DNA of 3,496 nt from Escherichia coli (lineage in GTDB: Bacteria; Pseudomonadota; Gammaproteobacteria; Enterobacterales; Enterobacteriaceae), in assembly GCF_003334385.1 (NCBI RefSeq), contig NZ_QOWN01000092.1. One strand, given 5' to 3'. Below are positions 1 to 3,000 of this stretch, piece after piece (position 1 is the first letter of the stretch; each line of letters begins with the position of its first letter). Position numbers: made by a program.

Positions 1-3000
1 GGCGCACCTGGTGCAGTGGGGCCCGCAGGCCCACGGGGACCGGCTGGTGCAGCTGGTCCCAAAGGTGATGCAGGCCCGGCAGGGCCACGAGGTGAAAGGG
101 GACCTGCGGGGGCACAGGGTGTTCCGGGGCCGGTTGGTCCGGCAGGTCCTGCGGGTAAAACGGGGCCACGAGGTTTGCAGGGAGAAACAGGAAGACAGGG
201 CCCGACAGGTCCACAGGGCCCGACAGGTGAACCCGGACCACAGGGACCACAAGGGCCAACCGGAAGGCTGGTACCCGGGGAAATTTACAGCATCGGAACA
301 TACATTATTGCCGCACTAGCCCCGTATACAACCGACATCGGCAGAACCTATCAGCCAGGAGAAACTGTACAGGGTTCACGCCTTAAGCGATGCGCCATAA
401 TCAAAGATGCAAGCGGGAACTATATGAAAGCTAACACCGATGGCATTGACGGCAGACTATCCTCAGTTCCGGGGTCATGGATGGTGTGTAATGAAATTAC
501 GTCGACAAATGACAATGAAGGCATCGGGCTGTTCCAGCGCGCATACTGACAGACAGGAGATGACATGAATGTGGAAAAAAATAAGCAATCCGCAATGGGC
601 AGATAAAGATCACACTGCTGTGAATTGCATGGTGAAGTTTGAGCACATTGAGCAGGCGGTTCCTTTCACTGCAACAGCCAGCGATACCGAAGCATACGGG
701 CGGGATATTTATGCCGCTTGTCTGAGAGGAGAGGCCGGTGAAATTGCAGAATATGTACAGCCATCCATCAGCCCGGAAAAAGCCAGAGAACTCAAAACCG
801 CCGGGATCAACGCCTGGCGTAATGCGATGGAAGCGGCGAACTACACGTTTGAGCACAATGGGCGTAAATGGGACTACGGGAAGTCAACGCAGACGCGTCT
901 TGAGCCGTCGGTGGCTGCCGCGAAAGCAGGAATACTGCCGGAGGGTTTTTTCTGGACGGATGCGGAGAATAACGACGTCCCGATGACGGCAGAGGCGCTG
1001 ATGGCACTCAGTGAGGCGGCGGAGAAGGCGATGTTCACCAAAGGGATGGAAATTCACGTACAGCAGCGCAACATGAAGAAGGCACTGGAAGCGCTGAACA
1101 GTGCGGATGAGATTCTGGCGTATAAGGTGGGTCAGGAGTCGTAAATAAAAAAACGGGGGTGATGCCTCACCTCCTCTTTCGTCAATAGAGGATTACTGCA
1201 ATCGTTTTTTTATTGTGAAACAGATTCTGCAATAACCGCCAGGCATATTCAGTGATGCCTGTCACACGCTCCGGAACGCGGATGGCAGCGGCATGTCAGA
1301 AAACGATTAATATTATTAATACATCGAAAAAAAATCAGAATGTGGTGGTTATCACATTATTAAGCGTAAGGAACTGTGTCATAAGTGCGCGAGGGAAATA
1401 AGCGAAACGACAGCATGCGGTGTGGAGCGTGAATAATGGCGGGGATGACGGATATCACCGACTGTACAGTACGATAATTCCTAAAAAGTTTATATTCATT
1501 TTTGCGAATAATCCTGGAATAAGCTGACAGGAAGCAGCCAGTTATCAGATTTTCTTTAGTGTATCTGAAGTGCGTCTGAGAGGGTTGCTTTTTTTGTATA
1601 CAAAGAAATTACAGGATATCCATAATGAGTAAAAAATTCACAAAGACACTTCTATCATCTTCTCTGGGTGGGCTTCTGCTTGGGATCAGCTCAGGTGTTT
1701 TAGCTCAGGAGTTACCTCCTATCAAAGATTCTGGTTTGCCTTCTTATTCAGTGCTGAAAGAGGCAGATGCTAAGTCTGTTATACACGGTAGTACTTATCG
1801 TATTTACTATAACAAATCCTCTGGTTGGGGAACAATGCGATATGTTCTGGACGGAAATGATAAGACCCTTTTTAATTTCGATCAGGAGGGTAATATTATA
1901 GTATTGAGTAAAGATAACTCAATTGCATATACCGTTCATGAGCCTGTGCTAAAAGACTTCGCCCGTATGGCAGCAGGCCTCAGAACGTCTGGCACAGAAA
2001 ACGGTAAGCATAAGGTTGATGAGGAGGAGGTCCGCCGGATCTTCAATAAAGTTAATAACTTATCAAATACAATTATTAATCCTGATTTATTTAAAAGCTC
2101 GGATTTTATTTCCTCTGGATCTGCTCCAGAAAATGACCCTGTAGTTCCTGCCAGTGCAGAAGGTGTGTTTGCGTTTGCGACTGGACAAGGTGCCAAGGCG
2201 AATGGATATATAGCAACAGCAGTGGGCTCATGGGCTGCTGCGGACGGTAAACAAAGTACAGCTCTGGGAGGGGGAGCATATGCCTATGCAGATGCTTCAA
2301 CAGCCGCCGGAACAGCTGCTTATGTTGATGGTTCTGCTATTTATGGTACCGCTATAGGTAATCACGCAAAAGTGGATAAAAATGCAACTGAAGGTGTTGC
2401 ATTAGGAGCCAAAGCAATATCTGCACATAAAAACAGTGTGGCCTTAGGGGCAAACTCCCGAACCACTCGTGATAATGAAGTTTACATTGGTTATGAAGAG
2501 GCTTCTGGTAAAGCATATAAAACCCGCACCCTTGGAGGATTGACTGATGGAACTCGCCCATCCGATGCAGCAACTGTTCGTCAGGTTGATCGGGTAAAAG
2601 ACAGTGTTGAGCAACTGGCTCAGGATACGAATACCCGCCTTGTAGTCGAAGCGAAAAAGTCTCGTGAATATACAGACTCCAGAACGACAGTTGGTGTGAA
2701 CCCTGACGGAAAACTTACCCGTGCAGAAGGTGCGACTAAAACTATCGCCGTCAATGATGGTCTCGTTGCTCTGTCTGGCAGAACAGACCGTATTGATTAT
2801 GCAGTTGGTAGCGTTGACCGCCGGGTTACTAAAAATACACAGGCTATTCAGTCCAATACTCGCCAGTTGCAGGAGCATAATGCACGCCTGAACAGCCAGC
2901 AGCGTCAAATTCGTGAGAATCACGAAGAGATGAAGCGTGCAGCAGCACAGAGTGCAGCGCTGGCGGGGCTTTTCCAGCCGTACAGTGTGGGGAAATTCAA

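Follow-up and report, generated by a model that had tools for sequence, protein, structure and literature searches.

We analysed a stretch of 3,496 nucleotides (nt) of Escherichia coli DNA (contig NZ_QOWN01000092.1 of assembly GCF_003334385.1; hereafter the window), of which positions 1-549, as judged from coding content and the gene order of close relatives, are the 3' end of a side tail fibre gene, equivalent to lambda stf, of an Eib-carrying lambdoid prophage. The gene ends with a collagen-like tract and a distal tip of 92 amino acids (aa), and it is followed by a small gene, open reading frame 191 (ORF-191; ORF denotes open reading frame below). The comparison with relatives establishes the identity of the fibre, its architecture, its tip family membership and its cassette structure, and the tip is now placed in a large family that extends across E. 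coli, Pseudomonas, Aeromonas and environmental phages. As a whole, we consider it probable that this is a lambdoid side tail fibre in which the tip serves both as the trimer nucleus and as the receptor end, with ORF-191 as the chaperone and with new tips acquired by cassette exchange.

Identity and architecture of the fibre

In frame 1 the window has no stop codon from base 1 until the TGA at 547-549. The first 90 residues are 30 consecutive and uninterrupted G-X-Y triplets, and 30 in-register glycines cannot arise by chance. After the collagen there are 92 non-collagen residues (nt 271-546), ending with GLFQRAY. The first-pass annotation, which was made from the sequence alone, had given about 30 triplets, which is the exact count, and about 93 aa of non-collagen C-terminus, where the translation gives 92. 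The reading in frame 1 is backed by annotated full-length relatives that are 93-99% identical, and an ORF in the +2 frame (11-319, 102 aa) was dismissed as a shadow of the collagen repeat. The start of the fibre gene lies upstream of the window, and the domain architecture, including its N-terminal part, was read from these relatives (L001:11041-12546).

A megablast search placed the window in E. coli chromosomes, with a match in 134 of 5,426 complete genomes, 28 of which cover at least 80% of window 1-1200, and the best locus is 98.9% identical across all 3,496 bases. The fibre relatives are annotated as 'prophage tail fiber N-terminal domain-containing protein' of 496-502 aa, with the full-length relatives overall having 496-523 aa. 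In the relatives, the tape measure gene, gpL, gpK-like, gpI, gpJ and, in some of them, Lom lie 5' of the fibre, while the DUF4376 protein, a YadA-like adhesin, a serine-protease autotransporter and then the yecD-aspS chromosomal junction lie 3' of it. The order of gpJ, Lom, fibre, DUF4376 protein and Eib-like adhesin is present in E. coli chromosomes that are 94-99% identical to the window, in PhiR5_1 and in P-EibA; the same arrangement is present in the phage records PhiR5_1, PhiR5_2 and PhiR12_1 to _5 (host fields E. coli C, K-12 or ECOR13) and also in the classical P-EibA, C, D and E prophage fragments of ECOR-9. The fibre itself was found in eight phage genome records, again with E. coli C, K-12 or ECOR13 in the host field. 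A literature search on the PhiR5 and PhiR12 phages found no publication.

It is the position immediately after gpJ and Lom, in the lambda-like tail operon of the relatives, that makes the gene the lambda stf equivalent of an Eib-type lambdoid prophage. This is in agreement with the initial proposal of a phage tail fibre, as is the Stf-type PF08400 that the relatives carry. It was also asked at the outset whether the full-length protein would match a non-phage collagen-like surface protein with no tail genes upstream, and tail genes are present upstream in the relatives, where the full gene can be read together with its PF08400 tail-fibre N-domain.

For the full-length relative, Pfam gives PF08400 at residues 1-134 (E 2.3e-42), four Collagen (PF01391) matches and the phage tail fibre repeat PF03406 at residues 260-301, with no match to the PfC domain (PF06820). 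The triplet runs are 19+20, broken by GDPGGPPG, and 33. This order of PF08400, collagen, PF03406, collagen and tip is the EPclC architecture, as defined by Ghosh et al. in 2012 with ORF-401 of P-EibA among the examples (PMC3368898). It was noted there that the EPclC C-termini are without homology to PfC and that the collagen lengths vary by multiples of three, and the related EPclA type was shown experimentally to be trimeric, collagen-containing and dumbbell-shaped, consistent with side tail fibres (PMC3368898). The fibre type is thus already described (EPclC, 2012), and the gene is a new allele of a known and routinely annotated fibre.

The nearest described relative is ORF-401 of P-EibA, where, as here, the gene order is J, lom, fibre, ORF-191 and eib, and the protein is of the form PfN-Col-Pf2-Col-tip with a GxPGGPxG break in Col1 and no PfC. 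Its DNA is 97-100% identical to the present type across the first 340 codons. By contrast, it differs in the end of Col2 and in the tip, the tips being about 20% identical (pairwise E 0.001), and the N-domain of the downstream chaperone differs as well (33% identity). Compared with lambda Stf/Tfa, the present pair has the same place in the tail operon after J (and lom), the same PF08400 and Pf2 repeat, and in both cases the fibre is trimeric and accessory and has an assembly protein encoded behind it. However, the shaft of lambda Stf is not collagen, its tip is unrelated to the present one, and lambda Tfa is of the Caudo_TAP type whereas ORF-191 has no Caudo_TAP match, with Pfam giving PF14301 only.

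The tip as a member of a widespread family

Searches with the tip alone gave no NCBIfam match, Pfam on the full-length relative leaves the tip uncovered, and a PDB sequence search with the tip alone gave chance matches only (E about 0.4). There was one weak PHROG match, to phrog_17472 'tail protein' (E 2.8e-5), aligned to the profile end. Single-sequence protein searches (word-indexed, and phmmer against 1.84 billion representatives) gave only E. coli proteins that are at least 91% identical, apart from three long repeat proteins. The latter (P0018-P0020) were judged spurious, their scores being summed over 6-7 Big-like repeats; in the profile search against PDB, concatenated RecA constructs with repeat-summed scores and KIR/PIR receptors matched through a 'GTYRC' motif were similarly rejected as chance. 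BLASTP likewise failed to align the tip with that of PB1 when the two were compared directly, and for this reason the homology set was gathered through profiles selected by synteny.

The synteny comes from ORF-191. With tblastn, residues 1-60 of its product match the start of a small gene lying 3' of the long tail fibre in about 300 PB1-like Pseudomonas phages at about 50% identity, and similar starts were found in phiP27 and in phages of Aeromonas, Vibrio and Microcystis. The fibre proteins encoded 5' of these genes have ends that look like the tip, one example being PB1 gp46 (...GVGSYGIFAV...PGVVVDGSIL...AGTWRCMG...TLFQRVT-stop). Via the partner N-domain 80 viral contigs were gathered, and in each the ORF ending just 5' was read. 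Nearly every readable upstream ORF ends in four motifs, VG[TS]Y, PGxTxAGSxL, SGTWRxMG and L[FWY]xRI[SA]-stop, and the window tip has all four of them in order (IGTY, PGxTVxGSxL, PGSW, LFQRxx-stop), with the last one at the exact C-terminus. Fibres of PB1-like and Pakpunavirus Pseudomonas phages, of phiP27, of Aeromonas phages and of many metagenomic viruses have these motifs at their C-termini. Moreover, a profile built from 46 non-redundant tips, with all E. coli collagen fibres excluded, scores the window tip at 35.3 bits (E 5e-7 with Z set to one million), while the best of 2,000 shuffles reaches 11.1 bits; the P-EibA ORF-401 tip and the phiP27 L56 tip score 25.3 and 17.8 bits, respectively. 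Based on the four common motifs and on the 35.3-bit score obtained without E. coli sequences, the tip is assigned as a divergent member of a large unnamed fibre-tip family, of the PB1 gp46, phiP27 L56 and P-EibA ORF-401 type.

The first-pass annotation had called the tip unusually small and unrecognised. The former does not hold, since 80-100 aa is the normal size in this widespread family and the window tip is within that range; the latter holds as far as Pfam, NCBIfam and the PDB sequences are concerned, while by profile the tip is a member of a family that has no name. The single Cys pair that had been pointed out is present in the tip, at C131 (KRCAII) and C163 (WMVCNE), although it is no family feature: both Cys occur in 7 of 43 aligned tips and neither in 24 of them. 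The idea of a disulfide was dropped because the pair is not conserved.

PB1 gp46/gp47, Pa193 gp47 and JG004 ORF84 carry a tip of the same family, as indicated by the four motifs and the profile matches and with a predicted fold that may be shared as well, and the N-domain of the PB1-type partner is homologous to that of ORF-191 at about 50% identity. The rest differs. The shaft in these contractile-tailed, virulent PB1-like and Pakpunavirus phages consists of beta-structured beads, in contrast to the collagen here, and the PB1-type partner has a short helical C-terminus in place of DUF4376, with a much shorter variable loop in the PB1 type.

For JG004, a host-range mutation, K653N, was described in ORF84, with the fibre determining the host range (PMC3706319). 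K653N is located within the homologous JG004 tip, in the loop that separates motif 2 from motif 3. Note that in the RefSeq ORF84 motifs 1-2 match the profile (27.5 bits), and that motifs 3-4 (LSGSYRCMG...ITLFQKVAA-stop) are found one frame over (NC_019450.1 ~47140-47330; L087 2640-2831), which points to an indel in the 3' end of ORF84 in NC_019450. The ORF read through the adjacent frame has about 2,058 bp, the length given in PMC3706319, while the RefSeq coding sequence has 2,076 bp. The annotated 3' end of JG004 ORF84 therefore appears to be frameshifted.

Predicted structure of the tip

With the 43-sequence alignment (A4), AlphaFold2 (AF2) predicts about six beta-strands for the tip, with a predicted local distance difference test score (pLDDT) of 78.8 and a predicted template modelling score (pTM) of 0.70; without the alignment, the pLDDT is 34 and the model is unusable. 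The model is least confident at its residues 61-65, which are part of the variable loop that separates motif 2 from motif 3. The 14 best BFVD matches to the tip model are all phage tail fibres (probability 1.0, template modelling (TM) score 0.49-0.68), being predictions on both sides, and the phages concerned infect Pseudomonas (Pbunavirus, Pakpunavirus, phiPsa374), Aeromonas, Aquamicrobium, Sinorhizobium and Lentibacter. The tip model had no structural match to the lectin-like fibre heads (AP22 gp53, R-pyocin fibre). The only PDB entry holding a family member is Pa193 gp47 (9b45), which was modelled for residues 1-340 only (PMC11042391), and the tip fold is thus without an experimental structure.

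ORF-191 and the exchangeable cassette

Only 19 nt separate the fibre stop from the start of ORF-191 (569-1144), and the RefSeq annotation of the 98.9%-identical locus has the same coordinates. Pfam gives PF14301 (DUF4376) at residues 72-181 (E 1.8e-17), so that the downstream chaperone that had been presumed is indeed present as a tail-fibre chaperone of the DUF4376 class; PHROGs label its relatives 'tail fiber protein'. The N-domain is covered by no Pfam family, and residues 2-67 score 100.3 bits against a hidden Markov model (HMM) of the metagenomic partner N-domains. The metagenomic partner proteins have 68-181 aa, many of them having 68-90 aa and consisting of the N-domain only. Each member of the tip family has directly behind it a gene for a small protein that begins with this conserved domain of about 65 aa; here the protein is ORF-191, in which the DUF4376 chaperone body is added.

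The comparison of the P-EibA type with the present type gives the extent of the unit that is exchanged. At the DNA level, fibre nt 1-1020 are 97-100% identical, the stretch from fibre nt ~1020 to chaperone codon ~72 is unrelated, and the rest of the chaperone gene (DUF4376) is 65-88% identical; at the protein level, residues 1-72 of ORF-191 are about 33% identical while the remainder is nearly invariant. The swapped cassette thus runs from ~60 to ~786 in the window and extends from the distal part of Col2 through the tip and the spacer to the end of the chaperone N-domain, with the left junction inside the collagen repeat and the right one where the N-domain meets DUF4376. Of the 29 complete E. 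coli genomes that match the cassette (window 265-785) at all, 28 have it intact. These alleles show that the distal collagen and the tip are exchanged in E. coli together with the N-domain of ORF-191, as one cassette.

It is also noted that in PhiR12_2_star (PV340551.1 45873-49040; L088 2374-5541) an IS21-like element, consisting of a transposase and an ATP-binding helper, interrupts ORF-191 about 42 codons into the gene. PhiR12_1, _2 and _4 show the same pattern of 55% coverage as PhiR12_2_star, and their host fields are E. coli C or K-12. Since the split gene is found in phage records naming E. coli C or K-12 hosts, it suggests that the side fibre is dispensable, or accessory, in these phages.

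Length variation of the collagen tract

The first-pass annotation had described collagen tracts as prone to recombination and variable in length, and this is borne out by length differences in relatives, by deletion variants and by the cassette breakpoint inside the tract. Comparison of the triplet number among related prophages gives 30 triplets for the distal tract in the window and 31, 33, 34, 38, 39 or 50 in relatives, and all the length changes observed are multiples of three codons. In one E. coli protein of 426 aa (P0016) most of Col1 is gone, and in another of 287 aa (P0017) Col1 is fused straight to the end of Col2, with the loss of the Pf2 repeat and the second coil, while the tip is retained in both. 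The same tip with altered tracts is explained by in-frame recombination between collagen tracts.

In three E. coli contigs from IMG/VR (L014, L015 and L018) the same tip allele is present on longer fibres (>571-706 aa within the fetched flank), whose upstream regions differ and whose distal tract reaches as many as 50 triplets. Since these fibres differ upstream, the tip cassette has been joined to several shaft types.

Proposed mechanism

Based on the above, we propose the following mechanism. The fibre would be a homotrimer that docks on the tail tip by its PF08400 N-domain, followed by a short coiled coil, the first collagen helix, the Pf2 repeat with the second coil, the second collagen helix and the beta-rich tip of about 92 aa. 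At the C-terminus the tip would set the register of the chains and nucleate the trimer, the collagen helix zipping up from there, and it would also be the receptor-binding end, its specificity being determined chiefly by the long variable loop that separates motif 2 from motif 3. The folding of the tip would be assisted by ORF-191, which starts 19 nt after the fibre gene: its N-domain would recognise this particular tip, while its DUF4376 would trimerise and so gather three fibre chains. The fibre would be an accessory adsorption device, as lambda Stf is, with gpJ as the essential receptor binder, and new specificities would arise by recombinational exchange of the cassette, with the left crossover in the repetitive collagen DNA. 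Of these roles, receptor binding, nucleation of the trimer and dependence on the chaperone for folding are inferred, and they are what we consider most likely for the tip.

Several published systems bear on these steps. In Pakpunavirus the C-termini of the long tail fibres correlate with the O-antigen type (PMC12697256). In the Alteromonas phages V22 (gp26/gp27) and A5 (gp8/gp9), the downstream protein has DUF4376 as ORF-191 does, V22 gp27 being a DUF4376 protein that is essential for an active fibre, and the V22 and A5 chaperones resemble intramolecular chaperone domains (PMC7289586, PMC10579305). Their N-terminal beta-strands were modelled as pairing with the fibre head. The V22 and A5 fibre heads, however, were described as lectin-like (similar to AP22 gp53), for which the present tip model has no match. 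The CJIE1 H-fibre likewise requires its DUF4376 partner (PMC7882524).

A two-domain chaperone is seen in the cryo-electron microscopy structure of Pam3 gp24-gp25 (PMC9608196) and in the AlphaFold3 (AF3) model of the PB1-type fibre/partner pair of phage Banzai (PMC12390725). In the published two-domain model, the variable N-terminal domain grips the fibre tip and the conserved C-terminal domain trimerises, and the co-variation of the tip and the N-domain here fits this model exactly. Pam3 gp24-gp25 (PDB 7YPX) has the same two-domain logic as ORF-191, its N-terminal beta domain gripping the tip and its helical C-terminal domain trimerising in a 3:3 complex; the Pam3 tip, consisting of a TNF-like domain and a glycine-rich domain, is unlike the present tip, and profile searches with the tip and with the N-domain did not detect the 7YPX chains.

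Other explanations considered

It could be proposed that the tip is a folding and trimerisation nucleus only and that the real adhesin is ORF-191, which would stay on the fibre end in the virion, as is reported for Tfa of Mu and P2 and for gp38 of the T2 type. In support of this, collagen helices require a C-terminal registration domain; the PfC domain of EPclA, which is unrelated to the tip, was shown to be a trimerisation module (PMC3368898); TfaMu stays on the fibre, with Mu and P2 Tfa binding lipopolysaccharide (cited in PMC7882524 and PMC12390725); and the PHROGs label for the ORF-191 relatives points in the same direction. However, the part of ORF-191 that would then point outward is the conserved one, DUF4376 being 65-88% identical in DNA across cassettes with unrelated tips, while the variable part matches the tip, and we disfavour ORF-191 as the adhesin because the exposed domain is the conserved domain. 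Moreover, many partners in the family have only 68-90 aa, which is the N-domain alone, the PB1-type partner was not found in Pa193 virions (PMC12390725), and the JG004 host-range mutation is in the tip, outside the partner (PMC3706319). We consider this proposal unlikely.

Still less probable is that the fibre gene is a decaying remnant in a cryptic prophage, without current function, by which the collagen and the tip are carried passively. In its favour, lambda can do without its side tail fibres, and both truncated fibres (426 and 287 aa) and chaperone genes disrupted by insertion sequences occur. By contrast, intact in-frame fibre/chaperone pairs with 93-100% identity are present in 28 complete genomes, the fibre is in eight phage records, and changes of the collagen length only by multiples of three codons are expected under selection for function; it is these intact and selected reading frames that make a remnant hard to accept. 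Finally, a collagen-like adhesin of the bacterial surface (Scl, Lcl or Bcl type), serving the lysogen rather than the virion like the adjoining Eib gene, which is itself a host-interaction adhesin, would account for the partial matches of NCBIfam collagen-adhesin models via the G-X-Y tracts, but it is excluded, with hardly any probability left to it, by the tail context (the gene sits between J/Lom and the fibre chaperone, and the full-length relatives have the PF08400 N-domain with no signal peptide or LPXTG visible) and by NCBIfam scores far under the curated cut-offs (143.7 vs 325, 109.8 vs 400 and 107.2 vs 500).

Implications

Returning to the side tail fibre with its exchangeable cassette, the tip-family and cassette findings are a useful tidy-up of modest value and no surprise in themselves. 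The family includes therapeutic Pbunavirus and Pakpunavirus phages, whose tips lack a solved structure. In the E. coli alleles nature has made a clean swap, from which the exchangeable unit is defined as the distal collagen, the tip and the chaperone N-domain, and this unit is a practical guide for engineering fibre specificity and for predicting which chaperone is needed by a given tip. A wider possibility, which we put forward tentatively, is that the tip and the partner N-domain may constitute a portable 'plug and cap' module, unnamed in domain databases, that ends structurally unrelated trimeric shafts (collagen in E. coli siphophage side fibres, beta beads in Pseudomonas myophage long fibres) and is moved between them by recombination, with the repetitive collagen DNA as the upstream crossover site in E. 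coli. If this is true, the collagen tract would be a built-in recombination adaptor for retargeting the fibre.

Other features of the window

Table 1. Coordinates in the window of the fibre 3' end, ORF-191 and the adjoining signals
Feature	Position (nt)	Strand	Evidence
Distal collagen-like tract (Col2) of side tail fibre, 30 G-X-Y	1-270	+	translation, triplet count, PF01391 matches on full-length relative
Tip domain, 92 aa and TGA stop	271-549	+	
Tip motif 1, IGTY	292-303	+	
Tip motif 2 (PGxTVxGSxL type)	355-384	+	
Tip variable loop, 28 residues (residues 129-156)	385-468	+	between motifs 2 and 3
Tip motif 3, PGSWMVC	469-489	+	
Tip motif 4, GLFQRAY	526-546	+	
Ribosome-binding site AGGAG for ORF-191, 9 nt 5' of ATG	555-559	+	read from sequence
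ORF-191 N-terminal domain, ~72 aa, predicted tip-matching module of fibre chaperone	569-784	+	PB1 gp47 similarity, HMM, co-variation with tip
ORF-191 DUF4376 (residues 72-181), C-terminal tail and stop; predicted chaperone/trimerisation body	782-1144	+	Pfam PF14301
GC-rich hairpin flanked by A-run/T-run, 11 nt past ORF-191 stop	1155-1174	both	pattern scan only

The GC-rich hairpin after ORF-191 has a terminator score on either strand and is a probable bidirectional terminator closing the tail-fibre operon; an Rfam search of the window found no RNA family. In P-EibA, the annotated stem-loop lies further downstream within the corresponding spacer between ORF-191A and eibA.

An AT-rich non-coding stretch of 480 nt (1145-1624) precedes a gene on the + strand (1625-3151) for a YadA-like trimeric autotransporter of 508 aa, which is 76% identical to EibE, an immunoglobulin-binding protein, and 60-61% identical to EibC and EibD, and a terminator-like hairpin follows at 3185-3201. 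This Eib relative looks like a lysogen-expressed 'moron' 3' of the tail operon. In two relatives (L001 15945-19952 and L002 11966-15973) a serine-protease autotransporter of the S6 family with 1,335 aa, EaaA-like as in P-EibA, lies 3' of the Eib-like gene, so that the right arm of the prophage holds two autotransporter cargo genes 5' of a DinI-like gene and the yecD-aspS junction. At the end of the window (3241-3496, + strand) an ORF starting with MKVILATRNRYLEYGLQ runs off the window, where the relatives annotate a hypothetical protein of 156 aa (ORF-156A in P-EibA).

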